DNA from: Spirochaetia bacterium
GTDB taxonomy: Bacteria; Spirochaetota; Spirochaetia; SZUA-6; Bin103
DNA: 64,000 nt
Assembly: GCA_965203905.1 (NCBI GenBank)
Contig: CBDBDQ010000005.1
Span: forward strand, 1,088,001 to 1,152,000
Reading direction: 5' to 3'
Program-made: the position numbers and the translations under genes
Shown: positions 1 through 19,587 of the stretch, one piece after another
How positions within the stretch are numbered: the stretch's first letter is position 1
Layout of the letters: each line of letters starts with the position of its first letter
Notes under the pieces: model-generated
Told to the model about the DNA's origin: nothing
Seen by the model: the letters and a program-made list of their open reading frames with translations, nothing else
The model's database searches: none

Positions 1-129
1 CCTACTCGGAGTAGCCTGTGATCTCGTTGATCGATCTCCTGCTTGGTATAGCTCCGGCTGACCGCCGACTATCGTACCGGTGCGCGTAATGGAACGTGGC
101 AAACCCACAGGAGACAAGGAGATACATGG

Positions 130-2862
130 ATGAGGCGCAGGAAGCCGCCTAGACGCTCGGACAACTACCGCCACCCGGAAGCGGGGGCGTTGCTGCGGCC
201 AGATGTCGGCATCCAGCCGCAGTTTCGCAAAAAGAAGCCTTCAGCCGCGTATCGCTACGACTCTTCGCTGGCGCCCTCGCTCGAGTGGGACGGGCAGAAT
301 CCAGCACGTGAGCAGGGCGAAGCAGAGATCGCGGCGCTGGAGGAGCGCATAACGCGACTGTTGGCTATCCTCGATAGAGCGGACTCCGAGCCACTGTCGG
401 AGGAAGATCGCACCTCGGCACGCCACGAGCTCGCCACCGCGCAGCGTCACCTCGCCGAGCTGCGAGCGCTTTCCAAGCCGTTCCTCAACTGGGCGGGCAA
501 AGCTGAGCGGCTGTCCTTCGAGGTTCCCACGCTGCCGCTGTTCGTGCACGAACGGCTGTCCACCGCCGCCATCCTGGAGACGCTGAAGGGGCACCGGCGT
601 GACGACCAGCCGACGCAGTTCGAGTTGTTCGGGGAGAGCGATCTGCCCATTCACGACCGACTGCTCAAGGCCTACGAGCACCGCAACGGGTGGGTGAATC
701 GGCTGATCCTCGGTGATTCGCTGGTGGTGATGAACTCGCTGCTCGGGTTCGAGGGCCTTGGCGGGCAGGTGCAGACGATCTACATGGATCCACCCTACGC
801 AGTGAAGTTCGGCTCGAACTTTCAACCGTTCGTACGCAAGCGAGAAGTCAGGCACAACGACGACGACGACATGATCCGCGAGCCAGAGATGGTACAAGCG
901 TACCGCGACACCTGGGAGTTGGGGATCCACTCGTTCCTGACCTACCTGCGCGACCGGTTGCTGGTGGCGCGGGAGCTGCTGCATCCCTCGGGCAGCATCT
1001 TCGTCCAGATGTCGGACACCAACGTGCATCACGTACGCGAGCTGCTGGACGAAGTATTCGGCCCCGAATGCTTCGTGTCGCAAATCAGTTTTCAGACCAC
1101 CTCGGGGTTTCAGACCAAGACCCTCGCTACCCTCGGCGATTACCTGCTCTGGTACGCCCGTGACCGTGACCGGCTGAAGGTAAGAAAGCTGTTCGACGAA
1201 CAGCCGCTGATCCCGGGTGAGGGCAATGCCCGTTGGGTGCTACTGCCTGATGGTAGCTACCGTGGCGTGAGCGCTGAGGAGCGGCGGCGGGCCGCTGCTA
1301 TCCCCGAAGGCGCCAAGCTCTACAAGCCGGGGGACATGCAATCCCAAGGTGCGTCGCGCGAGCCGCAGCCCTTCGAATTTAACGGCAGGGTCTATCAGCC
1401 CAGCGCCAACTCCCACTGGAAAGCCAACTACCCAGAGGGCTTGAAGCGTTTGGCTGCGGACGGACGCATCCACGTAGCCGCAAACAGCATCCAGTATCGG
1501 CGGTTCGCGTCCGATTTTCCGTACCGGGAGCGAGGGAACTTCTGGACCGACACCCTGACCGGCAGCTTTACGGAAGAAAAGCGCTACGTGGTTCAGACCA
1601 ACCCCAAGGTGATCGAACGCTGCATCCTGCTCACTTCCGACCCCGGCGACCTGGTGCTCGATCCCACCTGTGGCTCCGGCACTACCGCATGGTGCGCGGA
1701 GAAGTGGGGACGGCGCTGGATCACCATCGACACTTCGCGCGTCCCGTTGGCGATTGCTCGCCAACGCTTGCTCACCGCCAGACTGGACTACTACCGACTC
1801 AAAGAGCCGGTGCGCGGCCCGGCGGGCGGCTTCGAGTACCAGCGCCGGCAGAACGCCAAGGGCGAGGAAGTCGGCGGCATCGTGCCCCACATCACACTGG
1901 AGTCGATTGCCAACGACGAACCGGCCAAGGAGGAGGTGCTGGTCGACCGCCCCGAGCGCGACGACAACGTTACGCGCGTGTGCGGCCCGTTCTGTGTGGA
2001 GGCGACAATTCCGGCTCCAACCGACTGGGACGATGACGAGACGGCCGCGGAAGCCGCACACGATGACGGTTACGATGATCACGTCGAGCGCATGATCGAA
2101 GTGCTGCGCCGCTCACCGGTCCTGCGTCTCGGGGGTGGGCGCACGGTCACCCTCTCCGGCGTGCGCCGCCCCGCGCGCACCATCAGCCTTTCAGCCGAGG
2201 CGAAGATCGAGGGCGAGGACGACCAGATCGCGGCTATCGTCTTCGGTCCCGAAAACGGCGCGGTGTCGCAGAACCTGGTGTTCGAGGCCGCGAAAGAGGG
2301 CAACGTGAAGGGCTACCGGCACCTGTACGTGTTCGGCTTTGCCATTCAGCCGGATGCGAGGAGCCTGATCGAGCTCAGTGACCGCGTGCTGGGTATTCCA
2401 GCCACCTACGCGCAGGCGAGCCCCGACCTCACCATGGGTGACCTGCTCAAGAACATGCGCTCCAGCCAGATCTTTTCGGTGTGCGGACTGCCCGAGGTGC
2501 GGATCGAGCGAGCCGATGACCACGCGTACCGCGTGCATCTGTCCGGGCTCGACGTTTTCGATCCCGCTACGATGGAAACCGACCATCGCGACGGCGCCGA
2601 CGTGCCGGCATGGTTTCTGGACACCGACTACAACGGCCTCTGCTTCCACGTGTGTCAGGCATTCTTTCCACGTACGTCCGCCTGGGAGGGGCTCAAGCGA
2701 TCGCTCCGTGGCGACTTCGAGGCGAGCGTCTGGCAACATCTTGCTGGGGCGAGCAGTGCGCCGTTCACCGCTGCCGGCCACGAGCAGATCGCCGTGAAGG
2801 TGATCGACGACCGGGGCAACGAACTGCTGGTGGTGAAGCATCTCGCGGAAGCTGACACTTGA
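130..2862 (+). CDS. mod: Type III-like restriction-modification methyltransferase (Mod), N6-adenine, beta class
   Basis: DPPY catalytic motif (IYMDPPY) precedes the SAM-binding motif (VLDPTCGSGTT). AGGAGA RBS upstream. Lies upstream of a Res helicase-nuclease. Confidence 0.9.
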   Translation: MRRRKPPRRSDNYRHPEAGALLRPDVGIQPQFRKKKPSAAYRYDSSLAPSLEWDGQNPAREQGEAEIAALEERITRLLAILDRADSEPLSEEDRTSARHELATAQRHLAELRALSKPFLNWAGKAERLSFEVPTLPLFVHERLSTAAILETLKGHRRDDQPTQFELFGESDLPIHDRLLKAYEHRNGWVNRLILGDSLVVMNSLLGFEGLGGQVQTIYMDPPYAVKFGSNFQPFVRKREVRHNDDDDMIREPEMVQAYRDTWELGIHSFLTYLRDRLLVARELLHPSGSIFVQMSDTNVHHVRELLDEVFGPECFVSQISFQTTSGFQTKTLATLGDYLLWYARDRDRLKVRKLFDEQPLIPGEGNARWVLLPDGSYRGVSAEERRRAAAIPEGAKLYKPGDMQSQGASREPQPFEFNGRVYQPSANSHWKANYPEGLKRLAADGRIHVAANSIQYRRFASDFPYRERGNFWTDTLTGSFTEEKRYVVQTNPKVIERCILLTSDPGDLVLDPTCGSGTTAWCAEKWGRRWITIDTSRVPLAIARQRLLTARLDYYRLKEPVRGPAGGFEYQRRQNAKGEEVGGIVPHITLESIANDEPAKEEVLVDRPERDDNVTRVCGPFCVEATIPAPTDWDDDETAAEAAHDDGYDDHVERMIEVLRRSPVLRLGGGRTVTLSGVRRPARTISLSAEAKIEGEDDQIAAIVFGPENGAVSQNLVFEAAKEGNVKGYRHLYVFGFAIQPDARSLIELSDRVLGIPATYAQASPDLTMGDLLKNMRSSQIFSVCGLPEVRIERADDHAYRVHLSGLDVFDPATMETDHRDGADVPAWFLDTDYNGLCFHVCQAFFPRTSAWEGLKRSLRGDFEASVWQHLAGASSAPFTAAGHEQIAVKVIDDRGNELLVVKHLAEADT

Positions 2863-4511
2863 TCCGGTCGGTTCGCATTCGCGGTTTCAAGCGGTTTCGG
2901 GAGATCGAGTTCCGCCTGCCCGGACACGTCGTGCTTGCCGGCCCCAACAACACCGGCAAGACCACCCTGCTGCAGGCGATCGCCTCGTGGGCGCTCGCCC
3001 TGCGCCGCTGGCGCGAACTCAACGACTTCAATCGCCGGAACGGATACCGGAGGGTACCAATCGCCCGGCAGGCGTTCGCAGCGGTGCCGCTCGGCAGCTT
3101 CGACCTGTTGTGGACCGACCGCCGGTATCACGGACAGATCGAGATCGAGTTGCGCCATGACGATGGGTGGGAGGTGACCATGGAGTTCATCGCCGACAGC
3201 ACCGAGCAGATCTACGTGCGGCCGGCGTGGGATTCGTCAGGCGACCTGCGGGAGATCGACCTGCAGGCGCTGTTTGTGCCGCCGATGACCGGCCTCGGCG
3301 TTGATGAACCGGTGTATCAGTGGCCCAAGATCGAACAGCTCCTGGGCCTTGGGCGGCCGGGGGAAGTGCTCCGCAATCTGCTCGCCGACGCCAGCCGCGA
3401 CGAGGCAGCGTGGGAGGCGCTGCAGGCAACCATCGACAAGCTGTTCGGGTACCGGTTGCTGCCGCCCGACACCGCCGGGGCGCACATCCGCGCCGAGTAC
3501 GAGGTGACCGGGCAGGGCCCGCCGTTCGACGTTGCGAGCGCCGGCAGCGGGTTCCAGCAGGTGTTGATGCTGCTGGCGTTCCTCAATACACGCCACGGCG
3601 CCGTGTTGCTGCTGGACGAACCGGACGCGCACCTGCACGTGATCCTGCAAGATGCCATCTACCATGAGCTCAGGAGCGCCGCCGCCCGACACGGTTCGCA
3701 GCTCATCGTCGCTACCCACTCCGAAGTGGTCATCAACGCCGTCGAGCCGCGCGAGCTCATGGTCACACTGAGCACTCCGCGGTTGGCCGCCGACAGCGAC
3801 GAGCGCAGCCGTCTCATTTCGTCGCTGCGCGTTCTCAGCAACGCAGATGTTATGCAGGCTTTGGACCTGCGCGGGATTCTCTACGTCGAGGATTACACCG
3901 ACATCAACATTCTGCGTGCGTGGGCCGAGACGCTGCAGCATCGGGCATTGGTTCTGCTGGTGAAGGAGTTGATGTGGAAACCAGTCGCGTTTCAGATACG
4001 GGAGGGGCAGCCGGGGAGGGGGATCACCCCGCGTGAGCACTTTCCGGCATTGCAACTGGTGCGCGACGACTTCGCCGGTCTGGAACTGCGCGACGGCGAC
4101 GCACAACCGGGGGCCGGGAATACGCAGATCACGGGCAGCGGATTACAACGCCTGCGCTGGAGGCGCTATGAAATTGAGAGCTACCTGCTCCATCCGGACG
4201 CCCTTGCGCGCTTCGTCACCGCCCAGGTTGGCGTCGGTGCAGCACGGCCACACGTCGAAGACATGCTTGCCTGGTGGCGACGTGAGTTTCCGCCGGGTCT
4301 CACAGAAGCACCACTCGGCGATCACCCGTTTGTGAACAACACCAAGGCGCGTACCGAGCTCCTGCCGCCTCTCCTGGAAGCCGCCGAGATCTTCGACCTG
4401 CCGTACACGCGCTACCATGAAATCGCTGCAGTGATGCTCCCAGAGGAGATCCATCCCGAAGTACTGGAAAAACTGGATGCGATCTGCCGGGCGTTCGGAG
4501 TCGAGCCGTGA
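2859..4511 (+). CDS. ABC-type ATPase fused to a C-terminal TOPRIM-like domain (OLD/PARIS AriAB-like)
   Basis: Walker A GPNNTGKT, signature-like SAGSGFQQ, Walker B/D-loop LLLDEPDAHLH, H-loop ATHSE. C-terminal YVEDYTD, DGD (DxD) and EIESYL motifs. Start overlaps the mod stop (TTGA) and stop overlaps the res start (GTGA). Confidence 0.8.
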   Translation: MIRSVRIRGFKRFREIEFRLPGHVVLAGPNNTGKTTLLQAIASWALALRRWRELNDFNRRNGYRRVPIARQAFAAVPLGSFDLLWTDRRYHGQIEIELRHDDGWEVTMEFIADSTEQIYVRPAWDSSGDLREIDLQALFVPPMTGLGVDEPVYQWPKIEQLLGLGRPGEVLRNLLADASRDEAAWEALQATIDKLFGYRLLPPDTAGAHIRAEYEVTGQGPPFDVASAGSGFQQVLMLLAFLNTRHGAVLLLDEPDAHLHVILQDAIYHELRSAAARHGSQLIVATHSEVVINAVEPRELMVTLSTPRLAADSDERSRLISSLRVLSNADVMQALDLRGILYVEDYTDINILRAWAETLQHRALVLLVKELMWKPVAFQIREGQPGRGITPREHFPALQLVRDDFAGLELRDGDAQPGAGNTQITGSGLQRLRWRRYEIESYLLHPDALARFVTAQVGVGAARPHVEDMLAWWRREFPPGLTEAPLGDHPFVNNTKARTELLPPLLEAAEIFDLPYTRYHEIAAVMLPEEIHPEVLEKLDAICRAFGVEP

Positions 4512-7500
4512 ACGTACGCGAAGTCCCCGAGCCGATCCTCAACTCGCCGTTCGAGGAGCCCAGGGAGCACTGGCGGATCACCGAACACGAGCCGCCTCAG
4601 CGGGTGCCCGGCCGCCGTCCGGCCATGTACTTCTACCGCCCGGCCGGGCATGAGTCGTCCGCTGAGCAGCAGGGAGTGGGGACGGCGATCGGACTGAAGT
4701 TGGTCAACCGGATCCGTGCCAAGCTCGCCGAGTGGCGGCCGATGGCGCTGCGCGGCGAGGGCGGCGTGAGCCGTACCACCATGGAATTGCTGCGCTACTG
4801 GCGCCGCGAGGGGCGCGGGCACCGTTTGTTCTTTGCCCAGCTCGAAGCCGCCGAAACGGTGATCTTCCTGACCGAGGCGCGCCGGGACTTCCTGCAGGGG
4901 ATCGACATCCCGCTCGACGAACCGGGTCCCGAGGCGCAGGCCAACGGGTTCCGCGCCTTCACGCGCTATGCCTGCAAGATGGCAACCGGCACCGGAAAGA
5001 CCACCGTCATGGGTATGCTTGCCGCGTGGAGCATCCTCAACAAGGTCGCTGCCCGTGGAGATCGCCGTTATTCGGATACCGTGCTGGTGGTGTGTCCGAA
5101 CGTTACGATTCGCAATCGGCTGGAAGAACTCAAACCGCAGGGGGGCGCGGCCAGCCTGTACCGCACGCGGGATCTGGTGCCGCCGCATCTCATGTCGTCG
5201 CTGGCGCAGGGCAGTGTGCTGGTAATGAACTGGCACGTGTTCGAGCCGAAGAGTGCGCACGCCGACGGCCAATCGGGCCGGGTGATCCGCACTGGGCAGG
5301 AGATCCGAACGCGGGAGACGATCCGCATTGGCACCAAGTCGACCACCATGCGCGGATCGCGCTATCTCACGCTGGACGATCTGAAGCGGCAGGTCGATCT
5401 CGGACTCGTTACCATTCTTGGTGAGCAGCGCGACCGGCAGGGCAGCCTCAAGTCGGTCGCAGTCGAGTCGGTTCGCTACGTGGAAAGCGATAGCAAACTC
5501 GTTGACCGTGTGCTTGCACGCGAAGTGGGCAGCAAGGGAAACATCCTCCTGATGAACGATGAAGCGCATCACGCCTACCGGATTCGCCACGCCGAGCCCG
5601 ACGACGGCGAGGAGGATCTGTACGGAGATGCCGATCAGACCGAGGAGTTCTTTCGCGAAGCGACCGTCTGGATCGACGGCCTGGACCGCATCCACAAGCT
5701 GCGCGGCATCAACCTGTGCGTCGACCTGTCCGCCACCCCCTACTACCTGGGACGTGTCGGGCAGGATGCGAATCGGCCGTTCCCCTGGGTCGTGAGCGAT
5801 TTCGGGTTGGTCGACGCCATCGAGTCGGGGCTCGTGAAGATACCGCAGCTCGCGGTGCGCGACACGAGCGGGGCCGCAATCCCCGGCTACTTCAACATCT
5901 GGCGATGGATTCTACCACGGCTCACTCCGGCCGAACGAGGCGGCCGCCGGGGGAGCGTGAAGCCGGAAGCGATCCTCAAGCATGCGCACGTTCCCATCGC
6001 GATGCTGGGCGGACTGTGGGAGCTGCTTCGCGACGAATGGGCACGGCGCCACGAGTCGGACCGCCCGCCGGTGTTCATCATCGTGTGCAAGAACACTGCA
6101 CTCGCCAAGGTCATCCATCGCTGGCTGGGCCATGACGAGGCGCCGGTCGGGATTCCGCCGGCGCGTCTCGATGGACTGCGCAATACCGATGGAGACAACT
6201 ACACGATACGGGTGGACTCCAAGGTCGTGCAGGAGTCGGACGGTGGGGAGGCCCGGTCCGACGCGGACCGATGGATGCGTTTGACGCTCGACACCATCGG
6301 CAAGACGGCGTGGCCGCAGGACGCTCAGGCGCGCCCCCTCTACCCCGAAGGATTCGAGGCGCTCGCGGAGAAACTGGAAAAGCCGTTGCATCCACCGGGG
6401 CGGGACGTGCGTTGCATCGTCAGCGTCGGCATGCTCACCGAAGGGTGGGACTGCAATACGGTAACGCACATCATCGGTCTGCGGCCATTCATGTCGCAGT
6501 TGCTGTGCGAGCAGGTGGTGGGCAGGGGGTTGCGTCGGCTGAGCTATGCAGTGGAGGAGGACGGCAGACTCGGCGAGGAGGTGGCGAAGATCTTCGGGGT
6601 GCCATTCGAGGTGATCCCGCTGAAGACCAACCCTCCCGGCGTGCCCAAGCCACCGCCGCAGACGTGGCGCATCCATGCCCTGCCGGAGCGCGCCGATCTG
6701 GAGATCAAGTTCCCGCGCGTCGAGGGATACACCTCTCGAATCCGCAATCGAATCCGTGTCGACTGGGACAGCATCGCGCCGCTGGAGCTTGATCCTCTGC
6801 ACATTCCGCCCGAGGTGGAGATGAAGGCCGGGTTGCCGAGCAACACCGGGCGACCCTCATTGATCGGTCCCGGGCGCCTGGAGCAGGTCGATCTCAACCC
6901 GTACCGTCGAGGTCGACGCCCGCAGCGTCTGGTGTTCGAGATGGCTCGCGATCTCACCCGCAACTACCGCCAGTCGCCCGACTGTGCGGCGCCCGCCCAC
7001 GTCCTGTTCCCTCAACTCGTGACGGTAGTGCAACGTTACCTCGATCAGAACGTGCGGCCCATCCCGCCGGCGCAAGACGTCGATGCATTCCTCTCACCCT
7101 GGTATGGCTGGCTCGTGGAACGCCTTCTGGAAGCGATCCATCCAGCGGCAGACGACGGGGACCAGGGCGAGTCACCGCGCTACGAGACCAACCGGAGACC
7201 GGGATCTACCGAAGAGGTCGACTTCGAGACCAGACGCGAGCCCTACCCGGTGACCAGGAGCCACGTCAACGCGGTCGTCCCCGACACCGCCAAGTGGGAG
7301 CAGTCGGCTGCCTACCAGATAGATCGCCACAAACAGGTAAAGTCATTCGTCAAGAACGCAGGCCTCGGATTCGCCATCCCCTACCTGCACAACGGCGAAC
7401 ATCACGAGTACATTCCCGACTTCATCATCCAGCTCGCCGACGACGAGCCGCGTTACCTCATCCTGGAGACCAAGGGCTTCGATCCGCTCCGCGAGGTGAA

Positions 7501-7633
7501 GGAGCAAGCGGCCCTACGCTGGGTTCGCGCAGTGAACGGTACAGCCAGCTTCGGTCACTGGGCTTACGCCATGGTCACCGAAATCGCCGCTGTGGACGAA
7601 GTGATTTCGAGAGTATCTGCTACGGCATCGTGA
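4508..7633 (+). CDS. res: Type III-like restriction endonuclease Res subunit (SF2 helicase + PD-(D/E)XK nuclease)
   Basis: MATGTGKT, NDEAHH, SAT, MLTEGWD and QVVGRGLR helicase motifs. C-terminal PDF...LETKG nuclease motif. Confidence 0.9.
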   Translation: MNVREVPEPILNSPFEEPREHWRITEHEPPQRVPGRRPAMYFYRPAGHESSAEQQGVGTAIGLKLVNRIRAKLAEWRPMALRGEGGVSRTTMELLRYWRREGRGHRLFFAQLEAAETVIFLTEARRDFLQGIDIPLDEPGPEAQANGFRAFTRYACKMATGTGKTTVMGMLAAWSILNKVAARGDRRYSDTVLVVCPNVTIRNRLEELKPQGGAASLYRTRDLVPPHLMSSLAQGSVLVMNWHVFEPKSAHADGQSGRVIRTGQEIRTRETIRIGTKSTTMRGSRYLTLDDLKRQVDLGLVTILGEQRDRQGSLKSVAVESVRYVESDSKLVDRVLAREVGSKGNILLMNDEAHHAYRIRHAEPDDGEEDLYGDADQTEEFFREATVWIDGLDRIHKLRGINLCVDLSATPYYLGRVGQDANRPFPWVVSDFGLVDAIESGLVKIPQLAVRDTSGAAIPGYFNIWRWILPRLTPAERGGRRGSVKPEAILKHAHVPIAMLGGLWELLRDEWARRHESDRPPVFIIVCKNTALAKVIHRWLGHDEAPVGIPPARLDGLRNTDGDNYTIRVDSKVVQESDGGEARSDADRWMRLTLDTIGKTAWPQDAQARPLYPEGFEALAEKLEKPLHPPGRDVRCIVSVGMLTEGWDCNTVTHIIGLRPFMSQLLCEQVVGRGLRRLSYAVEEDGRLGEEVAKIFGVPFEVIPLKTNPPGVPKPPPQTWRIHALPERADLEIKFPRVEGYTSRIRNRIRVDWDSIAPLELDPLHIPPEVEMKAGLPSNTGRPSLIGPGRLEQVDLNPYRRGRRPQRLVFEMARDLTRNYRQSPDCAAPAHVLFPQLVTVVQRYLDQNVRPIPPAQDVDAFLSPWYGWLVERLLEAIHPAADDGDQGESPRYETNRRPGSTEEVDFETRREPYPVTRSHVNAVVPDTAKWEQSAAYQIDRHKQVKSFVKNAGLGFAIPYLHNGEHHEYIPDFIIQLADDEPRYLILETKGFDPLREVKEQAALRWVRAVNGTASFGHWAYAMVTEIAAVDEVISRVSATAS

Positions 7634-7992
7634 TGAGAAAGGCCACAGAAACTGGAACGGTTAACGCCGACCGAGAAGCTGTCGGCGAACTCTGGGATCG
7701 AGATCTTCTGAGGCTCTGGGGCCGTTCGTTCAACGAATAGCGGACGGCGAGGATATGTTTATTGTGACGACGGAAAAACACCTTCATGAGACTACGACAT
7801 GCGTCAAGACCTGGCATACAATCGATTCGTCCACGCACGGAAAGCCGATGGTTATGTTCGGCCCATGAACGCAGTTGCAGTTCTGAACGGCGAACGGTGA
7901 TCATGGTCAGTGTCTATTCTCAGCTCCACTTTCGGCCGTCAGAATGAATTTCTAGTTTCGTGACAACTTATGAACAATGGGAAACCGAATCG

Positions 7993-8634
7993 ATGCCTGA
8001 ATTCGTAACTACGTGCCCCTACTGCAAGGCTGAACAAACCGCGTTCTTTTTTGGTGGAGAAGTGCGGACAGAACAATTTGTCTGGGTCACTCTTTGGGTA
8101 TGCCGGAGATGTTCCGAAGGGATCGTGGTTAGGCTGGAGCAACCTCATGAGTTCGCCGGAAGGACCGTCGAGCACCCGCCTAGTACGATAGATCGAGAGA
8201 TTTGCTCTTGCGGATACAGGGTGCTCAGCTCTCACCCAAGACCGGCAAGAGTACAAGCTCCTGACCATGTTCCCCAAGGAGTTGCACAGAGTTACGTAGA
8301 AGCGCTTGATAGCTTAGATAGGCGCAACTTCAATGCTGCAGGAGCAATGTGTAGAGCAACTCTCGACAAGGCAACGAAGCTACTACTACCTGATGGCGAA
8401 GATTCTTCCAAAATGTCGTTGTACAGGAGAATCGAAAGACTGGCTGAATTACGCATCTTGACGAGTGCTCTACAAGAGTGGGCTCACATCGTCCGTGATG
8501 AAGGTAACGAAGCTCTTCATGCTCTACACGAGACCGACGAAATTACTGCGAGAGACCTGTGCCATTTTACAGAGATGTTTCTCTACTACGCCTACACCAT
8601 GCCAGGATATGTCTCCGCATATCGAGGAGAATAG
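7993..8634 (+). CDS. DUF4145 (HEPN-like) domain protein with N-terminal zinc ribbon
   Basis: CPYC...CRRC, then 'AAGAMCRATLD...LYRRIERL...VRDEGNEALH', typical of DUF4145. Visibly lower GC than core. Alternative start at 7960. Confidence 0.75.
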   Translation: MPEFVTTCPYCKAEQTAFFFGGEVRTEQFVWVTLWVCRRCSEGIVVRLEQPHEFAGRTVEHPPSTIDREICSCGYRVLSSHPRPARVQAPDHVPQGVAQSYVEALDSLDRRNFNAAGAMCRATLDKATKLLLPDGEDSSKMSLYRRIERLAELRILTSALQEWAHIVRDEGNEALHALHETDEITARDLCHFTEMFLYYAYTMPGYVSAYRGE

Positions 8635-8767
8635 GATGCAAGCAGAGAGCGACCAATAGATTGGTGACGAATGCATGCTGTGACGCTACGTTCGCGCTCC
8701 TGGATAATCGGATAATCCTGCTGCAACGGTTGTTCCGTTGTTCACACGTGCCGCATTCTCATTGGTG

Positions 8768-9517
8768 CTATGGTGAGGGCCCTCGGGAGACCGACCGGTT
8801 TCTGACGGGGTCGCGCCACCAACGGCTGGCCGTGTCGCGGCGTGCCGGCACCTGGACGATGCGGTCCTCCTCCAGCAGGTAGGCGCTGAGGCGGCCGCCG
8901 AAGACGCAGGCGCTGTCGAGGCCGACCAGGTAGGGGCGGGCATCGGGACCGGCGCCGGGCGGGCGCTTTATCACCAGGCCGCCGGGGGCGTCGTGGCCGA
9001 ACACGATCAGCTTACCGCCGGGGGCAACGTGGTCGTGCCAGCGCGGGCCCTCGATTCCATCGGTCGGGGGCCAGGTGCGGATCACCACCAGTTCGTCGGG
9101 GGTGCTGCCGGCCAGGCCAGCCTCGGGGTTGATGCCGGCGTGGACCAGCAGGAAGCGCGGCTCGTGGATCGCCAGCGGCAGCCGCTCCAGCCAGGCGGTA
9201 AGCTCGGCGGCGTGCGGCAGCAGATCGCGCAACCGCGGCCCGCGGGACTGCTTCAGCCCATCCGGGGAGCCGCCGGCGACGATGGCCTGCAGTTGCGGCA
9301 GCAGCCAGGTCTCGTGGTTGCCGAGCACCATCTCGGCGCCGGTGGCGCGGATCGCCAGCCACACGCCGAGCGGATCGGGGCCGCGGGTGAAGGCGTCGCC
9401 GGTCAGCAGCAGGCGATCGCGGCCTGGCGCGAACGCCACCGCCTTGAGCAGAGCCTCGAACTCGGCGCAGCAGCCGTGGATGTCGCCGACGAAGATGGTA
9501 CGCGCGGGTGGGGCCAT
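8768..9517 (-). CDS. Metallophosphoesterase (ApaH/PrpA-like), second copy
   Basis: GDIHG, GD..TRG, GNHE, HAG and GH motifs. Nearly identical to 13941..14672 except for the C-terminal tail. Confidence 0.85.
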   Translation of the reverse strand: MAPPARTIFVGDIHGCCAEFEALLKAVAFAPGRDRLLLTGDAFTRGPDPLGVWLAIRATGAEMVLGNHETWLLPQLQAIVAGGSPDGLKQSRGPRLRDLLPHAAELTAWLERLPLAIHEPRFLLVHAGINPEAGLAGSTPDELVVIRTWPPTDGIEGPRWHDHVAPGGKLIVFGHDAPGGLVIKRPPGAGPDARPYLVGLDSACVFGGRLSAYLLEEDRIVQVPARRDTASRWWRDPVRNRSVSRGPSP

Positions 9518-10413
9518 GGAATCGGTTGCGACTTGGCCGGCGACTACCGGCCGCGGGAGCCGGCCGCGGTCTGCGCCAGGATGAAGGCGCGCAGCGCCGC
9601 GAAGCTGGGCTCCAGGGGCGTGGCCTGCTTGGGGCGCTCCAGCAGTTCCTGCAGCGGCGCCGGCACCGGCGGCACCACGCCGGTGGCACGCTGCACGGTC
9701 TCCGGGAACTTGCCGGCATCGGCGGTGGCGAGCACCACCACGGGCGAGCCCGGGGCCCCGAACACGGCGCCCTGCTCGCGCAGTCGGCGGGCGGCGGCGA
9801 TCCCGACCGCGGTGTGCGGGTCGATCAGCCGGCCATCGCGGTCATGGGCCCGGCGCATGGTGGCCAGGGTCTCGTCCTCGCCGACCGCACAGCCCTTGAG
9901 GTGGGCGCTGACGGCGGCGTGATCGTGGTTCCAGCGCGCCAGGATGCGCTCGAAGTTGGAGGGGTTGCCCACGTCCATGGCGTTGGACAGGGTGGCGACG
10001 CTGGCGCGAGGGTCCAGGGCGCCGGTGTCGAGGTAGTTCGGGACCACGTCGTTGCGGTTGGTTGCGGCCCAGAAGCCCGCCACCGGCAGTCCCCACTGGG
10101 CCGCGTACACGCCGGCGGTGAGGTTGCCGAAGTTGCCGCTCGGGACGCAGAACAGCGGCGAGCCGGCGGCGCGCAGGCGCAGGCCGGCGAAGATGTAGTA
10201 GAACGCCTGCGGCAGCAGCCGCCCGAGGCTGATCGAGTTGGCCGGGCACAGGCGCGCCGCGGCGACCAGCTCGCGGTCGATCAGCGCCTGCTTCACCAGC
10301 CGTTCGCAGTCGTCGAACGAGCCGCGATCCCGACGGCGTGGATCTTGTGACCGAGGGTGGTGAGCTGCTACTCCTGCAGGCGGCTGAAGCGCTCGGAGGG
10401 GTACAGCAGCACC
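8816..10413. repeat. Direct repeat, copy A (~1.6 kb; 3' thrC + metallophosphoesterase)
   Basis: Aligns to 13971..15569 at offset 5155 bp (ATG 9517 vs 14672; stop 9544 vs 14699). Centre nearly identical, ends diverged. Confidence 0.95.
9544..10413 (-). pseudogene. thrC: 5'-truncated threonine synthase copy
   Basis: Matches the C-terminal half of thrC 14699..16066 and lacks the PLP-lysine (SAFKD) region. Segment ~10303-10413 carries an indel and a CAG-to-TAG change. Confidence 0.9.
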
Positions 10414-10478
10414 GCGAGCGCATTGCAGAGGAAGGTCGAATCAGCTGCCCAGCCCCGATCGAGCATGGCACAATCGAG

Positions 10479-10496
10479 TACCCCCGATCGGGGGTA
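10479..10496. other. Perfect 18-bp palindrome TACCCCCGATCGGGGGTA
   Basis: Read directly. Lies ~25 bp downstream of the 10521..11276 gene and ~65 bp from the repeat edge; may be a terminator or operator. Confidence 0.6.
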
Positions 10497-10520
10497 GCAT
10501 GCGTAGATTCCGCGTAGCCC

Positions 10521-11276
10521 TTACCCTACCCAAGGGTCCTCAGCAAAGACGATGGGTCTCGCATAGCTGCCAACACCGACGATGATGCCATCGACGGTGT
10601 CCAGACAACGCTCGACAAATCCCTTGGTCATGTAGAAAAACCAAGGCTGGTTATCTGACTCAGCGCGGGAGAAGTAACTTGCCCAACCATCTGAATCGAC
10701 GCGCTTGGCGAAACTGGCAAGGTCCGCGTCCGGCCACTCGAGGCCGAAGTGAAACATCTTGTTCCGATACGCAAAGAGAGCTGGCGCCGTCGTACCCAAG
10801 TCGTCGGGCACGTGACGCCTCAAGTCGATGTTGTCGGCGATCTGCAAAAATGCGTTGGCGATGCCGAACCTACGTCGGCTCTCTTTCCATATCTGCGCGT
10901 CCTTGAAGTAGGTGACGGTTTGGCAGAACAGGGACTCTATGAGTGGCGCGATCAGACCGACAGCCGCCATACTATGTGCAGCTTCGAGGAAAGTCCAGTC
11001 GTGCATCTGGGTGTCCCAGTGGTGATCCGCCCAATGTTGTGGGTAGCGGTGCCCGCGGATGTCGGCTTGGAGTTCACGGATCCGAGCCGCTGCTTGTTCT
11101 TCGGCATCTTGGTTGCGTTGCAGGACACTTCGGATTGCGACACACTGAGATTCGTAGTTCGGGGTTAGGATTGATAGCCCGATGTCTCGGTCGGTAACGG
11201 TATCGAACCCAACTCCAGCATATTCGCACAGGAACTCCAAATGCTCCCGTACTGACACTAGCTGTAGATCACTCAT
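10521..11276 (-). CDS. Hypothetical protein with HEPN-type RX4H motif
   Basis: Mostly helical protein with ALFAYRNKMFHFG (R-x4-H). Lower GC. The ORF is open from 11381. Confidence 0.6.
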   Translation of the reverse strand: MSDLQLVSVREHLEFLCEYAGVGFDTVTDRDIGLSILTPNYESQCVAIRSVLQRNQDAEEQAAARIRELQADIRGHRYPQHWADHHWDTQMHDWTFLEAAHSMAAVGLIAPLIESLFCQTVTYFKDAQIWKESRRRFGIANAFLQIADNIDLRRHVPDDLGTTAPALFAYRNKMFHFGLEWPDADLASFAKRVDSDGWASYFSRAESDNQPWFFYMTKGFVERCLDTVDGIIVGVGSYARPIVFAEDPWVG

Positions 11277-11951
11277 TTCCGATCGGATCGGCGGATAGTT
11301 GAAGAGTGGCGACGATAAACGATCTGCTTTCCCACGGGGACGCTCCTCTGCCGCTTGCCAAGCATGGGGGCAGTTCGCCACCCCAAAACGGTTGAGTTGT
11401 GCGACCGATTTCTTCGCATGCTGCCAACGGCCTGTGACAAGATGGGCCGTCCGCGATCAGTGGGTCGGTTTGTTCCATAATACACCGTGCCCTTTAGATC
11501 GCCTGCTGTACCACAGCCACACGCCATCACAATCCGACCTGATAGCTATCAGTCCCCAAGAAGCCACAGTCCAGACTACTCAGACCGCCCATTAAACTCT
11601 TGTTCACTCCACCAGCGTCCTTGTAGTAACAGCGAGTTCCCGTTCCTGACCCAGCGACAAGTCGGCAGCTCGCGGATCTACTTGGCATCGACCAGAGGTC
11701 GGCCGTGGAGGAATTCCGCCAAGATCAGACGAATGGGAAGTTCACGATGCTGATTCCCATCGGCTACCAATTTCTCGCGCGATCTTAGCACAGGACCATA
11801 GCACCTCACGCGAGTATAGTTCGTTGCGTCCGGTTCATCCCAAGATTGTTAAGCTGATCCCAGATTGCCGCAACTTTCAGCTGTGGCATGAAGCTCCGTC
11901 ACGTCGCCGTCCGACCGTCTGTCTTACTTCGACTCATAAAGCCGTCTATAG

Positions 11952-12565
11952 TCAACTTAGGTTCGTATTTTGAAACAGTGTCGCTCGCGAATGCCCGTCC
12001 GTCCTATTTTTCATTAACACGATTATCATTTGATCATCACCGGCAAGGACGATTTGATGATGATTCAGGAGTCTTATGATTTTGTTCATCCAATGTGGAG
12101 CATCTTGAAGGAATCGATGCGCGTCAGCAGCTTGCTGTGGAGAAAACGGATTACGTGTGTGTAGTAGCTTCGAGCAGTGGTCATATAGTGTCTTGAAGTT
12201 GTCGAGTGTGAGGAAGCCTCTCTCTATTTCCTTATTCTCAAAGTAGCCTTTCCGCACCTCATTTTGAATCGTAGGAACCGGATAGAATCCGGGATTTACT
12301 TCCTTAATTCGGTCCAGAATCTTTTTTGCTTGCCAGTGTGTGGCGAAATTCGCATGTTGTCGTCCATATTCGTCTTTATTAGCTATCAGTGAAGCGAGAG
12401 CGATGAGTTCAAGTATTTTCCGGATTGTAACGCAACGGACTCGGCAGTAGGCACATCGTACTTTGCGTTACAAAGACGACTAATGAAACATGTCACTACT
12501 TCTGTACGCTTTTTTATTTCTTCCATCTGGTCGCAATACAGGCGTAGGCTACGTTCGTCTGGCAT
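11952..12565 (-). pseudogene. Frameshifted low-GC helical protein, possibly HEPN-like
   Basis: MPDERSLRLYCDQMEEIKKR...ESVALQ continues after a 1-nt shift near 12423 as RKILELIALASLIANKDEY...NPGFYPVP...LYDHCSKLLHTRNPF, joining the two listed ORFs. Confidence 0.65.
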
Positions 12566-12995
12566 CCGGGTGGATTTTCCTGCTACAATAATATGCAATC
12601 GCTCGTTCGGAGTCAAAGATTCCGATGTGTCCATTCCTTCTGGGTCGTCAGCCGTCGCTTGCTCAGTCCTTGTATTGACTACGTTGGCGTACACCATGGT
12701 GCCCAACGCTCACGCCCAGTAGGCAACGTGGTCAATAATGCGGATGAGTACGGATCAATTGACGGCCTCATCCTCGGTACATGACCTGTTTCCGGCCGCT
12801 TTGGCGTCTCGGGCGACTCTCGTGAGAGGAAGCGTTCCGTGACGCGCCCGGGAATGATCGCCAAAGTTGCGCCCGCGCTGACGCGCAATGAATTCCGCAG
12901 CTGGAGAGGAAGATCATCAAGCTTCGAGCGAGCCGGAGACCGAGCGCGCGGTGAGGGGAGTGGATCGTCCCTGCTGGCGTCGGCAGGACTATACA

Positions 12996-13890
12996 ATGGC
13001 ACGAACCGTTTCCGACGTCCGATCACGTCGCGCTGGAACTGGAATGCGTCGACCGCATGTACCTGAACGTCTACGTGCCGCTGTTGCAGCGCCCAGAGGG
13101 CGTGGCCCACTACCTGCGTGATGTGTGCGGCTACCAGGTGCCATCGTCGGCGCTGCTGGGGCCCGGACGCACGCCTTCGTGAGGGCCATCTAGTTCTGCT
13201 CCTATTTCGCGTTCAACGCCAAGCTGTGCCTCGACGGCCACGAGTACCTGAAGTGGCAGTTGGCCCGTCGTGGCATCGCCTTCGAGGCACTGGACAACGG
13301 CATCCTCGGTTGTGCCGACCCACAGCTCATGCAGGCGCTGGCTGACGGGCTCAGCGCCGCGCGTATCGACAGATTGCTGCGCAAGTGCCCGCCTGCCCCA
13401 TCCGTACAGCGCCGCCGGCCGGCCCGCCGGCATCGGCTACGAGTTGTCGATCCTGCAGGCCGAGTTTCGCGCTCACCCAGGTGCTCGACCACCGCTGCAC
13501 GGTCGTGCGTTCTTCGAGGGACGTGATCCGTGAATCTGGACCTGGGGCGTCCCGACCAGGTGCGGTTGATCTTGGAGGCGTCGCTGCACGTCGATTACAA
13601 GCACTCGCGCATCAAGCAGTATCAAAAGGAAGGGTGTGCGCTCCGCACCGAGACGGCTATCAACGATAGCAACGACTTCGGCATCGGCTGACGGCTGAGC
13701 AACTTCGATCAGCTCAGAGGACTGGGGTTTCCACCAACCGACGCCTGTTGCGCGACCAACGCATCAGCCATAACTGCCAGATCGGAGACGCTGCCTTTGA
13801 TGTTCTGCAGCAGTCGCGGGTGGCAGCCGCCAGCGACCAGCGCACTGCTGGCCTGCGCCTCGGCTGCGCACGGGTGCAAGCGTTGCTAAA
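12996..13890 (+). mobile_element. Degenerate transposase-like gene (multiple frameshifts, stops and deletions)
   Basis: Fragments in alternating frames: DHVALELECVDRMYLNVYVPLLQ, AKLCLDGHEYLKWQLARRGIAFEALDNG, YELSILQAEF, DLGRPDQV, SLHVDYKHSRIKQY..ALRTETAIND..DFGIG. I recall this pattern from a widespread multicopy IS-like family; family name not assigned. Confidence 0.6.
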
Positions 13891-13940
13891 GCGCGAGCTG
13901 CCACCGCTAGTCGTAACGTGCAAGCGGTACGTGCTTGGCA

Positions 13941-14672
13941 TTAGGTCGACCGGGCGCCAGGACTGCCCATCCACCAGCGGACAGCCGCGGCGCGGCGCGC
14001 CGGGACCTGGACGATGCGGTCTTCCTCCAGCAGGTAGGCGCTGAGGTGGCCGCCGAAGACGCACGCGCTGTCGAGGCCGACCAGGTAGGGGCGGGCATCG
14101 GGGCCGGCGCCGGGCGGACGCTTTACCACCAGGCCGCCGGGGGCGTCATGGCCGAACACGATCAGCTTGCCGCCGGGGGCCACGTGGTCGTGCCAGCGCG
14201 GGCCCTCGATTCCGCCGACCGGCGGCCAGGTGCGGATGGCGACCAGCTCGTCGGGGGTGCTGCCGGCCAGGCCGGCCTCGGGGTTGATGCCGGCGTGAAC
14301 GAGCAGGAAGCGCGGCTCGTCGATCGCCAGCGGCAGCCCTTCCAGCCAGGCGGTAAGCTCGGCGGCGTGCGGAAGCAGATCGCGCAACCGCGGCCCGCGG
14401 GACTGCTTCAGCGCATCCGGGGAGCCGCCGGCGACGATGGCCTGCAGTTGCGGCAGCAGCCAGGTCTCGTGGTTGCCGAGCACCATCTCGGCGCCGGTGG
14501 CGCGGATCGCCAGCCACACGCCGAGCGGATCGGGGCCGCGGGTGAAGGCGTCGCCGGTCAGCAGCAGGCGGTCGCGGCCTGGCGCGAACCCGACCGCCTT
14601 GAGCAGAGCCTCGAACTCGGCGCAGCAGCCGTGGATGTCGCCGACGAAGATGGTACGCGCGGGTGGGGCCAT
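13941..14672 (-). CDS. Metallophosphoesterase (ApaH/PrpA-like), thr-operon copy
   Basis: GDIHG, GNHE, HAG and FGHD motifs. Directly downstream of intact thrC. Confidence 0.85.
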   Translation of the reverse strand: MAPPARTIFVGDIHGCCAEFEALLKAVGFAPGRDRLLLTGDAFTRGPDPLGVWLAIRATGAEMVLGNHETWLLPQLQAIVAGGSPDALKQSRGPRLRDLLPHAAELTAWLEGLPLAIDEPRFLLVHAGINPEAGLAGSTPDELVAIRTWPPVGGIEGPRWHDHVAPGGKLIVFGHDAPGGLVVKRPPGAGPDARPYLVGLDSACVFGGHLSAYLLEEDRIVQVPARRAAAVRWWMGSPGARST

Positions 14673-15569
14673 GGAATCGGCTGCGACTTGGCCGGCGACT
14701 ACCGGCCGCGTGAGCCGGCCGCGGTCTGCGCCAGGATGAAGGCGCGTAGGGCCGGCAAGCTGGGCTCCAGGGGCGTGGCCTGCTTGGGGCGCTCCAGCAG
14801 CTCCTGCAGCGGCGCCGGCACCGGCGGCACCACGCCGGTGGCACGCTGCACGGTCTCCGGGAACTTGCCGGCATCGGCGGTGGCGAGCACCACCACGGGC
14901 GAGCCCGGGGCCCCGAACACGGCGCCCTGCTCGCGCAGTCGCCGGGCGGCGGCGACCCCGACCGCGGTGTGCGGGTCGATCAGCCGGCCATCCCGGTCAT
15001 GGACCTGGCGCATGGTGGCCAGGGTCTCGTCCTCGCCGATCGCACAGCCCTTGAGGTGGGCGCTGACGGCGGCGTGATCGTGGTTCCAGCGCGCCAGGAT
15101 GCGCTCGAAGTTGGAGGGGTTGCCCACGTCCATGGCGTTGGACAGGGTGGCGACGCTGGCGCGAGGGTCCAGGGCGCCGGTGTCGAGGTAGTTCGGGACC
15201 ACGTCGTTGCGGTTGGTTGCGGCCCAGAAGCCCGCCACCGGCAGTCCCCACTGGGCCGCATACACGCCGGCGGTCAGGTTGCCGAAGTTGCCGCTCGGGA
15301 CGCAGAACAGCGGCGTGCCGGCGGCGCGCAGGCGCAGGCCGGCGAAGATGTAGTAGAACGCCTGCGGCAGCAGCCGCCCGAGGCTGATCGAGTTGGCCGG
15401 GCACAGGCGCGCCGCGGCGACCAGCTCGCGGTCGATCAGCGCCTGCTTCACCAGCCGCTGGCAGTCGTCGAACGAGCCGGCGATCTCGACCGCGTGGATG
15501 TTGTCGCCGAGGGCGGTGAGCTGCTGCTCCTGCAGGCGGCTGATGCGCCCGGAGGGGTAGAGCAGCACC
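13971..15569. repeat. Direct repeat, copy B (native locus)
   Basis: Aligns to 8816..10413. Confidence 0.95.
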
Positions 15570-16066
15570 ACCTCGACACCGCCGCGACGCCAGAACGCGC
15601 GCGCCACCGCGCCGCCGGTGTCGCCGGAGGTGGCGACCAGCACCACCACGGGAGCGCCGTCCGGCTCGCTGGCGAGCCGGCGCTCCAGAATCGTGGCCAG
15701 GAACGAGGCGCCGAAATCCTTGAACGCGCTGGTGGGGCCGTGATACAGCTCCAGCAGGGCAATGCCATCGTCCAGCCAGCTCAGCGCCGGGGCAAAGGGA
15801 AAGGCAGTCGCGGCCACCTCGCGAGCCGCGGCCCGCGCGTTGCCGCCCGCGCCGCCGGCAGCCAGCTCGTCGGCCAGCAGCGCTTCGGTCATTGCCCCCG
15901 CGAGCTCCACGAACGGGGCGTCGCCGGGCAGGCCGGCGATGACGTCGCCCAGCTCGGGCGCGGGACACGGCTGGTAGAGGCCGCCTCCGGGCGGCAACCC
16001 GGCCAGCAGCGACTCGCCGAACGACAGCCGTATGGCGGGATCGCGCGTGGAGCAGACGGTCAACAT
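14699..16066 (-). CDS. thrC: Threonine synthase
   Basis: LELYHGPTSAFKDFG, ATSGDTG, VPSGNFGN and DPHTAV motifs. Confidence 0.95.
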   Translation of the reverse strand: MLTVCSTRDPAIRLSFGESLLAGLPPGGGLYQPCPAPELGDVIAGLPGDAPFVELAGAMTEALLADELAAGGAGGNARAAAREVAATAFPFAPALSWLDDGIALLELYHGPTSAFKDFGASFLATILERRLASEPDGAPVVVLVATSGDTGGAVARAFWRRGGVEVVLLYPSGRISRLQEQQLTALGDNIHAVEIAGSFDDCQRLVKQALIDRELVAAARLCPANSISLGRLLPQAFYYIFAGLRLRAAGTPLFCVPSGNFGNLTAGVYAAQWGLPVAGFWAATNRNDVVPNYLDTGALDPRASVATLSNAMDVGNPSNFERILARWNHDHAAVSAHLKGCAIGEDETLATMRQVHDRDGRLIDPHTAVGVAAARRLREQGAVFGAPGSPVVVLATADAGKFPETVQRATGVVPPVPAPLQELLERPKQATPLEPSLPALRAFILAQTAAGSRGR

Positions 16067-17004
16067 TCGGCGACGATCCGCGGCCCGGCGCGGCCGATCT
16101 CCGACACGTAGGCGGCGGCGGTCAGCCCGGCGGCTGCAAACGCCTCCCGCATCCCCTCGGCCACGGAACCCGCCTGCGCCACGGAGGCGGCCAGGGCGAA
16201 CACCGCGGGACCGGCTCCGGATATGGAGCAGCCGATGGCGCCACCGTCCAGGGCGGCCTTCTTGACCGCCGCGAAACCGGGAATCAGGACCGCCCGCACC
16301 GGCTCGGCGATCAGGTCATCCAGCGAGCGGCCCATGAGCGCCAGGTCGCCGGCGTACAGCGATGCCACCAGGGCGGCGAGGTTGCCCCACTGCGAGACGG
16401 CGTCGGCCAGCGGGATCTGCTTGCGCAGGATGCGCCGCGCCGCCTCGGTGGGGATCTCCACGTCGGGGCTGAGCAGCGCCACCGCCAGGCCGTCCGGCAC
16501 CGGCAGGCGCACCAGGTCCAAAGGCGCGACGCTGCGGATCAGCACGAACCCGCCCATCAGGGCCGGCGCCGCGTTGTCCGCGTGTCCGGCACCGGCCGCG
16601 ACCTGCTCGGCGGCAAGGGCGCAGGGCAGCAGCTCCTTCGCCGCCAGCGGGTCGCCGGCCAACCGGTTGACGGCGGCCAGGGCCGCGGCGGCACTGGCCG
16701 CGGAGCTGCCGAGGCCGGAGGCCAGGGGCATACCCTTGTGCAGAACCAGGTCCACGCCGAACGGCTCGCCGAGCCGCTCCAGCAGCCTGCCGGCGGCCAC
16801 CACCGCGGTGTTGCTGTCGCCGCGCGGCAGGCGGCCGCCGTCGCCGTTGACCTCCAGCAGGGTGACCCCGCCACCCGCCCGCCGGCGCGCCTCCACGGTG
16901 TCTCCGGGCCGTTCCACGGCGAATCCCAGCACGTCGAACCCCGACCCCACGTTGGCGACCGTGGCCGGCGCAAAGGCGGTCACCCGCCGCGGCAAGGCGC
17001 TCAT
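16060..17004 (-). CDS. thrB: Homoserine kinase
   Basis: APATVANVGSGFDVLG, GHMP motif PLASGLGSSAAS, HADNAAP, SGAGP. Confidence 0.95.
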   Translation of the reverse strand: MSALPRRVTAFAPATVANVGSGFDVLGFAVERPGDTVEARRRAGGGVTLLEVNGDGGRLPRGDSNTAVVAAGRLLERLGEPFGVDLVLHKGMPLASGLGSSAASAAAALAAVNRLAGDPLAAKELLPCALAAEQVAAGAGHADNAAPALMGGFVLIRSVAPLDLVRLPVPDGLAVALLSPDVEIPTEAARRILRKQIPLADAVSQWGNLAALVASLYAGDLALMGRSLDDLIAEPVRAVLIPGFAAVKKAALDGGAIGCSISGAGPAVFALAASVAQAGSVAEGMREAFAAAGLTAAAYVSEIGRAGPRIVAEC

Positions 17005-18387: not shown

Positions 18388-18491
18388 CGCCGTCCTGTGC
18401 CCCGCGAAGGTAACCATAGCGGCGGGGAAAGTCTTGCCGCCGCCGCGATCGCCGTTGCCGAAGGCGCGCACTTCGGGCGAGGCTGGGGCCG

Positions 18492-19535: not shown

Positions 19536-19587
19536 TGCGCACCGCGGCGGCGAGCCCGGGAAGCACCACGCGACGCCGCTCGGACGC

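Follow-up and report, generated by a model that had tools for sequence, protein, structure and literature searches.

Background

The defence proteins closest to the gene described here join an ABC ATPase to a Toprim nuclease. P2 Old forms dimers that detect persistent DNA ends by way of a channel spanning the ATPase heads, after which they cleave tRNA (PMC13648713), and in PARIS the AriA protein senses Ocr and releases AriB, which cuts tRNA-Lys (PMC11464382). OLD proteins are assigned to classes by genomic context, as single genes, with a UvrD-like helicase, or in retrons (PMC10568477), and MAD3-MAD4 is an OLD-related DNA nuclease in the methylation-associated system MADS (PMC13662399). The nesting of defence genes within other systems ("guilt by embedding") has been described for hosts that include Hma, BREX, DISARM and type I restriction-modification (R-M), and for guests that include ABC ATPases with Toprim partners; HEC-04, a validated ATPase-Toprim fusion, is embedded in Hma systems (bioRxiv 10.1101/2024.01.29.577857). 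We describe an ATPase-Toprim gene, called X, that lies between the mod and res genes of a type III-like R-M operon in a 64,000-nucleotide stretch of DNA, the window, from a Spirochaetia bacterium (GenBank assembly GCA_965203905.1, contig CBDBDQ010000005.1, positions 1,088,001 to 1,152,000).

In the available text of the embedding preprint the sole mention of "type III" is of DRT type III, and Menshen operons have been reported next to type III systems (PMC12065111). The literature searched, which did not extend to the preprint's supplementary tables, yielded no characterised case of a gene like OLD or PARIS within a type III operon, in agreement with a previous interpretation of the locus, the sequence-only reading, which knew of none. 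That reading proposed that X monitors a type III Mod/Res complex. The comparative evidence points elsewhere: X is probably an OLD-family cassette with an autonomous defence role, carried within a type III-like operon of the BPTD_3080 kind, and would most likely add a second layer against phages that is expressed with the operon.

Results and discussion

X is an OLD-like ATPase-Toprim protein

The ATPase motifs of X comprise a Walker A (GPNNTGKT, residues 28-35, nucleotides 2940-2963), a signature-like motif (SAGSGF, 227-232), a joined Walker B and D-loop (LLLDEPDAHL, 250-259, with D253/E254 in Walker B) and an H-loop (ATHS, 285-288, with H287). They are followed by the acidic motifs VEDYTD (342-347), DGD (412-414) and EIESYL (438-443). 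The sequence-only reading had picked out Walker A and B, both loops and the three acidic motifs, and they prove to be conserved: in an alignment of 78 relatives reaching down to 29% identity, N30, K34, D256, H287, D348 and D412 are invariant, and D253, E254, E344, E438 and E440 are at least 90% conserved. The head matches Pfam AAA_21 (7.6e-22) and AAA_15 (2.1e-15). An AlphaFold model built on the 78 relatives has a predicted local distance difference test score (pLDDT) of 94.2, and in VIA-align comparisons its residues 1 to ~325 are effectively tied between the heads of PtuA, SMC and Rad50 and AriA (Z 18-20). For the whole protein, the top Foldseek match is the OLD protein of Thermus scotoductus (6p74, E 3e-13), which also ranked first in a profile search of solved structures (2.4e-17).

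The C-terminal 266 amino acids matched no Pfam or PADLOC model at E<=10, nor did their profile match any solved structure at that threshold, and residues 301-550 were therefore folded alone (pLDDT 89.8). In a VIA-align search of 48,161 representative chains, the best match of the Toprim domain was AriB (8v46_D; Z 10.4, 193 residues aligned, root-mean-square deviation (rmsd) 3.9), followed by the C-terminal region of Burkholderia pseudomallei OLD (6nk8_B; Z 8.6, 168 aligned, rmsd 4.1). Further matches were PH0156 (Z 7.7), retron Eco8 (6.8), T. scotoductus OLD (6.5), GajA (6.4) and retron Eco2 (6.3); unrelated folds scored lower than all of these. The Foldseek results for this domain (8ux9_A, E 1.3e-2; 6nk8_A, probability 0.98) have weak E-values and agree with VIA-align. 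The acidic sites in the fold are E344 (nucleotides 3888-3890) and D348, both within YVEDYTD, the DxD formed by D412-G413-D414 (4092-4100) and E438/E440 (4170-4178), within EIESY. We take E344, D348, D412/D414 and E438/E440 to be the probable equivalents of the OLD two-metal residues of Schiltz et al. 2019. A single chain thus begins with an ABC ATPase, complete with Walker A and B, a signature-like motif and an H-loop, and ends in a Toprim fold in which a Glu and the DxD of the metal site are conserved. This is the composition of an OLD-family protein, a family whose nuclease activity is modulated by ATP, and the kind of protein that the sequence-only reading had recognised.

By sequence, X lies outside the curated families so far as the models searched can tell. 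Neither Pfam OLD-like_TOPRIM (PF20469) nor DUF4435 matched X at E<=10, and each matched a single one of the 78 relatives (6.1e-4 and 7.1e-6, respectively). Of the three comparisons suggested earlier for the C-terminus, those with AriB and OLD hold by structure and that with DUF4435 fails by Pfam sequence. The best PADLOC match is AriA (PDLC02980, 7.3e-25), confined to residues 140-293, while that to AriAB (PDLC02981) covers positions 244-318 of a 694-position model. The mad3 (1.9e-17) and GajA (3.9e-16) models match ATPase segments only, GajA in short stretches, and those for HEC-01A reach 1.6e-14 at best, again over the ATPase part. HEC-04 is absent from the PADLOC matches listed for X (25 of 137 families), and none of the matches listed covers X from end to end.

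We conclude that X, as modelled, is an OLD-family-like ABC ATPase-Toprim protein of class 1 architecture with an AriB-like Toprim domain. It resembles the class 1 OLD proteins (P2 Old, T. scotoductus OLD) in that 6p74 is its top full-length match and in that it can stand alone, as orphans and paralogues described below do. It differs from them in three respects: class 1 genes are single (PMC10568477), whereas X usually lies between mod and res; the Toprim fold is closer to AriB than to T. scotoductus OLD; and X misses the Pfam OLD-like_TOPRIM model. With PARIS (an AriA ABC ATPase and an AriB DUF4435 Toprim protein, occasionally fused) X shares the logic of ATPase plus Toprim, the best structural match of its C-terminal domain and its best PADLOC match, and an anti-anti-restriction role like that of PARIS (PMC11464382) would suit an R-M host. 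However, X has 550 amino acids against ~770 for AriA plus AriB, the AriA and AriAB models match part of its ATPase only, DUF4435 does not match it, and PARIS frees AriB from a hexamer of AriA, a mechanism that is not open to a fused chain in the same form.

The family is large, with more than 4600 database relatives, mostly from uncultured bacteria. The most variable blocks of the head (residues 51-150 and 176-225) fall between the Walker A and signature motifs, where the sensor surface might be expected.

The host operon is type III-like and the mod-X-res order recurs

In Mod, motif IV (DPPY, residues 220-223, nucleotides 787-798) precedes motif I (DPTCGSGT, 511-518, nucleotides 1660-1683), with a target-recognition region between them, as in type III methyltransferases, and a C-terminal extension of ~370 amino acids comes after them. 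The protein matches Pfam N6_N4_Mtase (3.4e-26) and PADLOC MTase_III (PDLC03632, 3.7e-140), and residues D220, P221, P222 and Y223 and D511, P512, T513, G515, G517 and T518 are invariant in 41 sequences. Res is a superfamily 2 (SF2) helicase-nuclease with motif I (ATGTGKT, 159-165), a DEAH box (351-354) and a C-terminal PD...ExK site (P970, D971 ... E987, K989; nucleotides 7415-7474), and these motif residues are invariant across 46 sequences. Its score with NCBIfam NF046055, the model named "BPTD_3080 family restriction endonuclease", is 1012 bits, above the cut-off of 800, and it matches Pfam ResIII at 1e-05. A DEAH SF2 helicase joined to a PD-(D/E)xK nuclease, in the order mod then res, is the arrangement of a type III system; because the classical PADLOC REase_III models match Res weakly (7e-09), we call the pair "type III-like". 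In their biochemistry, type III enzymes are marked by an asymmetric site, the use of two inversely oriented sites and cleavage at a distance of 25-27 bp. A literature search for the term BPTD_3080 found no paper.

The operon resembles MADS (MAD3-MAD4) and Gabija (GajA-GajB) in that an OLD-related ATPase-nuclease lies beside a methyltransferase or a helicase, respectively. The differences are that the corresponding models match X in ATPase segments only, that no other mad gene and no UvrD-like GajB occurs at the locus, and that Res is a type III-like SF2 helicase-nuclease; its PADLOC matches fall in four families, all of them restriction enzymes, and GajB and mad are not among them. Membership of the locus in Hma, MADS or Gabija was considered and dropped after the PADLOC search.

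Overlapping stop and start codons (Table 1), read directly from the DNA, indicate that X is translationally coupled to both mod and res. These overlaps had been noted before and they recur in related loci. In a scan seeded with X and restricted to one genome per species, 34 of 56 loci keep mod and/or res around X: 25 have full mod, X and res in order, seven are cut by contig ends and are consistent with that order, and in two a flanking gene, mod or res, is frameshifted or broken. X is intact but has lost both neighbours in 12 loci (seven with no remnant; five with remnants, L011, L012, L016, L022 and L044), nine have a broken X, none of which adjoins an intact mod or res, and one (L035) is too short to judge. 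Of the 25 complete loci, 21 have a 4-base overlap where X meets res, and for the other four an approximate 8-base overlap was computed. At the border of mod and X, 15 loci have a 4-base overlap, nine are spaced by 18-480 bases and one by 3102 bases. A search seeded with res, blind to X, returned 80 metagenome loci (58-67% identity), 69 of them with at least 300 bases upstream. X adjoins res in 38 of the 69 (37 by direct scoring and L116 in addition, whose alignment is split and conceals the adjacency) and is lacking in 31. Two findings that would have refuted the sequence-only reading are thus not made: close homologues of X lie mostly within R-M loci, and the C-terminus does have a Toprim fold.

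Among loci L001-L056, X is 66-84% and Mod and Res are 72-91% identical across Spirochaetota, Gammaproteobacteria, Alphaproteobacteria, Binatia, Latescibacterota and Bryobacterales, and the high identity of the unit across phyla points to recent transfer between them. Many of the record titles name sponge-associated candidate families. A search of phages gave no match, and the best match in a search of plasmids had 26% identity.

X occupies a variable slot between mod and res

The history of X in the operon was traced on a tree of res that six outgroup sequences, all without X, served to root. Of the 46 rows in its five earliest ingroup offshoots, 45 carry X, and the rows that lack X lie nested. 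Its presence or absence requires at least six changes on the FastTree topology (five forced by starred branches) and nine on a quick IQ-TREE tree, counts that X-seeded rows bias toward X. A single clade of the 31 X-less rows is rejected (log-likelihood difference 235.6, p-AU 6e-7), in a test that was set after the first tree had been seen. A single gain of X in this operon lineage is probable, with several later losses or replacements.

Where X is lacking, mod directly abuts res in 18 rows of the res tree, and in other loci the slot holds something else. In L086 it is occupied by HEC-01A (1.3e-177) with HEC-01B/DUF4276 (2.9e-65), and in L134 by the same pair as identified by Pfam. Other occupants are PDC-M30A (L123, 1e-96), PDC-S11 (L111), PDC-S01/DUF4143 (L143), a protein with a weak STAND-like match (L125) and an IS200 transposase (L083); several further X-less loci carry proteins without an assigned family. 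Beyond this lineage, X is likewise missing from six BPTD_3080 res loci, of which one is a second locus in the genome that carries the window and five belong to other genomes of its phylum.

Two of these more distant operons have further content of their own. In L074 the gap between mod and res holds, at 4432-5681 on the minus strand, a KilA-N protein and a PDDEXK_3 nuclease, one more kind of cassette in this slot. In the second locus of the same genome (L067, G000:C5:3564000-3583000) the res gene scores 1332 bits and is followed on the same strand by two small open reading frames (ORFs) of no assigned family, a HEC-01A-type ABC ATPase (6.3e-156) and a 982-amino-acid N6_N4 methylase, with a TIR-domain gene in between on the opposite strand. 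L067 is another restriction operon with nested defence-like genes.

X therefore lies on the same strand between the genes of a modification-based system, is absent or replaced in related copies, and is also found outside, as expected of an embedded cassette. In the first of these features it is like HEC-01, HEC-04 and PrrC; the slot is variable and is also used by HEC-01 and PDC families, and HEC-04 is itself an ATPase-Toprim fusion. X differs from those examples in that its association with the operon is old and mostly vertical within the lineage, and in that type III systems are not among the hosts named in the available text of the embedding preprint.

X persists without R-M genes

The 12 orphans do not trace to a single event. 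On the X tree the orphan state needs nine changes, eight of which are forced by well-supported branches. All examined sites are intact in 10 of the 11 orphans checked. The exception is L031, whose orphan X (7001-8668) has the Walker B substitution E254Q with the other checked sites intact. Replacement of the Walker B Glu by Gln in ABC ATPases usually blocks hydrolysis and leaves ATP binding in place. In one orphan clade (L010, L023 and L024), assumed to descend from an orphan ancestor, the ratio of non-synonymous to synonymous substitution rates (dN/dS) is 0.19-0.21 at dS 0.22-0.31; embedded pairs give 0.11-0.22. X genes thus persist under selection without R-M genes. In addition, the genome that carries the window holds three X paralogues (Table 1) of 30-35% identity, apparently standalone and not beside R-M genes. 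One of them (L070) is followed by a coupled ORF of 204 amino acids to which no family was assigned.

Where mod has decayed (L011, L016, L022, L044 and L052), the surviving piece is always its last 140-190 codons, abutting X or lying just 5' of it, with a 4-base overlap in L044 and L011. The simpler reading is that the remnant is retained as an open upstream frame for the translational coupling of X. A role for these remnants as a protein partner of X was dropped: the same C-terminal region occurs in Mods of X-less loci, and identity to Mod is no more than 40% for the remnant in L044. Directly 3' of the orphan X in L044 lies an AAA_21 ATPase with a DUF4276 protein (8804-10608), a HEC-01-like pair by domain, which makes this locus a small defence island.

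How X might act, and what else it might be

As an autonomous cassette, X would be expected to work much as P2 Old and PARIS do. Its ATPase heads would dimerise on ATP and sense an infection cue, which could be persistent DNA ends, as for P2 Old, or a DNA-mimic anti-restriction protein, as for PARIS. ATP binding or hydrolysis would license the Toprim domain to cut nucleic acid, either tRNA or DNA, with growth arrest or phage loss as the outcome. Nesting would provide co-expression and co-transfer with the R-M genes, so that a phage that gets past restriction would meet a second layer, and contact of X with Mod or Res would not be required. Either trigger would complement restriction, and the data choose neither; triggering by anti-restriction proteins in the manner of PARIS, without contact with Mod or Res, is possible.

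Several observations weigh against autonomy and would fit a working partnership as well. The X-res overlap is retained in all 25 complete loci. Pairwise distances of X and Res are correlated at r 0.91 (1485 pairs of 55 loci, with closely related rows inflating r), which implies an association far longer than that of a casual neighbour; the value for X and Mod is 0.78. Base composition is also alike across the three genes (GC 0.637 in mod and 0.644 in X and res, with GC at third codon positions, GC3, of 0.80 in all three, in a window of mean GC 0.679). The evidence for autonomy has limits of its own: the orphan dN/dS comes from one clade whose orphan ancestor is assumed, and a PALP gene upstream of X is common to L010 and L023, not to L024; the 56 X-seeded loci cannot reveal loss of X; and the C-terminal domain fails DUF4435 and OLD-like_TOPRIM by sequence, so that the family placement rests on fold and motifs.

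One elaboration, which we think rather unlikely, would make restriction itself the source of the signal, with X as a restriction-primed alarm. Cuts by Res would create DNA ends that X senses; when a phage blocks end degradation or repairs a single type III cut, the persisting ends would activate the Toprim domain and lead to abortive infection. If this were true, mod-X-res would be a context-defined new class of OLD systems, and it would explain why X has been kept beside res from the base of the lineage and yet is able to work alone.

The guard proposed in the sequence-only reading would have the Mod/Res complex bind and silence X until a phage anti-restriction block releases it, causing abortive infection. 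PrrC, held by the type I R-M system EcoprrI, is the precedent. The 4-base overlaps that join X to both of its neighbours in the operon and its long co-inheritance with res are what such a guard would show, and anti-defence proteins are a known trigger of ABC-ATPase defences (bioRxiv 10.1101/2024.01.29.577857). However, a nuclease checked only by Mod/Res should be toxic or useless alone, whereas X survives intact, with its catalytic residues kept, after at least eight separate losses of its neighbours, and the clade tested is under purifying selection. An X allele has also been exchanged between near-identical operons. Between L145 and L148 the distance is 0.04 for Res and 0.34 for X: in DNA, the 3' end of mod is 97-99% identical and res mostly 92-99% (81-86% in its first 600 bases), but X is only 52-70% identical, and the break points lie at the borders of the X gene. 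The exchanged allele lies at 500-2140 of L145, which was compared with both L146 and L148, and L150 shows the same pattern against L039 and L040 (X distance 0.55-0.57, Res 0.20-0.21). In L134, furthermore, the HEC-01 pair replaces X inside an X-bearing clade with short branches, which makes a co-adapted interface unlikely. The claim that X monitors Mod/Res does not stand up well against operons that lack X or carry other cassettes in its place, and we regard the guard as quite improbable.

Alternatively, Mod, X and Res could form one machine, with X as an ATP-driven nuclease module as in MADS, or with X and Res as a Gabija-like pair and Mod marking self. X was probably gained once at the base of the res clade and is kept in most lineages, it is tied more tightly to res than to mod both in junctions (overlaps in 25 of 25 against 15 of 25 loci) and in distances, its ATPase part matches mad3 and GajA models, and OLD-type modules do act within larger systems, in MADS (PMC13662399), Gabija and retrons (PMC10568477). 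Against an integral subunit stand the intact mod and res genes without X in 31 of 69 res-seeded loci, the direct mod-res junctions and the X-less BPTD_3080 loci noted above, the persistence of orphans, and the PADLOC families of Res. Since X remains intact and under selection after mod and res are lost and can be exchanged between near-identical hosts, we rate the subunit very improbable, and the guard little better. The comparative data suggest that X behaves as a cassette, and not as a subunit or a tethered guard.

That X is not a defence gene at all, being a DNA-repair or chromosome-maintenance ATPase-nuclease that hitch-hikes in a mobile R-M cassette, or an addiction element that stabilises the cassette, is most improbable: its head is as close to Rad50 and SMC as to PtuA and AriA, but the other occupants of the slot, where they could be named, all belong to candidate defence families or are transposases, defence nucleases (OLD, AriB, retron Eco8 and GajA) give the best matches to the full length and to the Toprim domain, and a patchy, cross-phylum distribution with repeated loss is typical of defence and not of housekeeping repair.

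Operon layout and flanking genes

The coordinates of the operon, of the domains of X and of its paralogues are collected in Table 1. Ahead of mod lies an AGGAG-rich stretch, ahead of X the sequence GGAAG and ahead of res GGAG. A promoter and terminator scan of positions 1-9000 gave counts at or below the shuffled mean, with no promoter-like site within 130-7633, and was not informative; a tRNA scan of positions 1-20000 found none.

Table 1. Features of the mod-X-res operon (positions in the window) and X paralogues elsewhere in the same genome
Feature	Position	Strand	Description
mod	130-2862	+	ORF, 910 amino acids
TTGA overlap	2859-2862	+	X start codon TTG shares bases with mod stop codon TGA
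X	2859-4511	+	ORF, 550 amino acids, TTG start; probable embedded cassette
X ATPase head, residues 1-325	2859-3833	+	Rad50/SMC-like ABC ATPase
X Toprim domain and helical tail, residues 326-550	3834-4508	+	Assigned by fold and conserved acidic residues
GTGA overlap	4508-4511	+	res start codon GTG shares bases with X stop codon TGA
res	4508-7633	+	ORF, 1041 amino acids, GTG start
X paralogue	C5:1176638-1178050		Own genome
X paralogue	C5:4350505-4352199		Own genome
X paralogue	C5:123275-124375		Own genome

Two neighbouring genes were considered as further members of the system and dropped. An ORF of 1812 amino acids (L071:4577-10015, same genome) ends 115 bases 5' of mod, just upstream of the window. 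It matches no Pfam family at E<=1e-4 and has a conserved counterpart in L001 alone, the nearest relative, with 70% identity across residues 399-1812; it therefore falls outside the conserved unit, and a four-gene system that includes it was rejected. Just 3' of res, a DUF4145 protein of 224 amino acids is encoded at 7960-8634 on the plus strand, within a patch of low GC (0.52 at 7501-8500). No counterpart adjoins res in the 136 related loci searched.

Conclusion

The principle of nesting is already published and the practical gain is modest, but the locus extends the list of defence systems with nested defence genes to type III-like restriction operons. A widespread family of OLD-like proteins, whose Toprim domain escapes Pfam and PADLOC, is defined as well. 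The gap between mod and res in BPTD_3080 operons is a variable slot from which further candidate defence genes may be read off, and the embedded, orphaned and swapped copies of X amount to a natural experiment on whether an embedded gene needs its host system.

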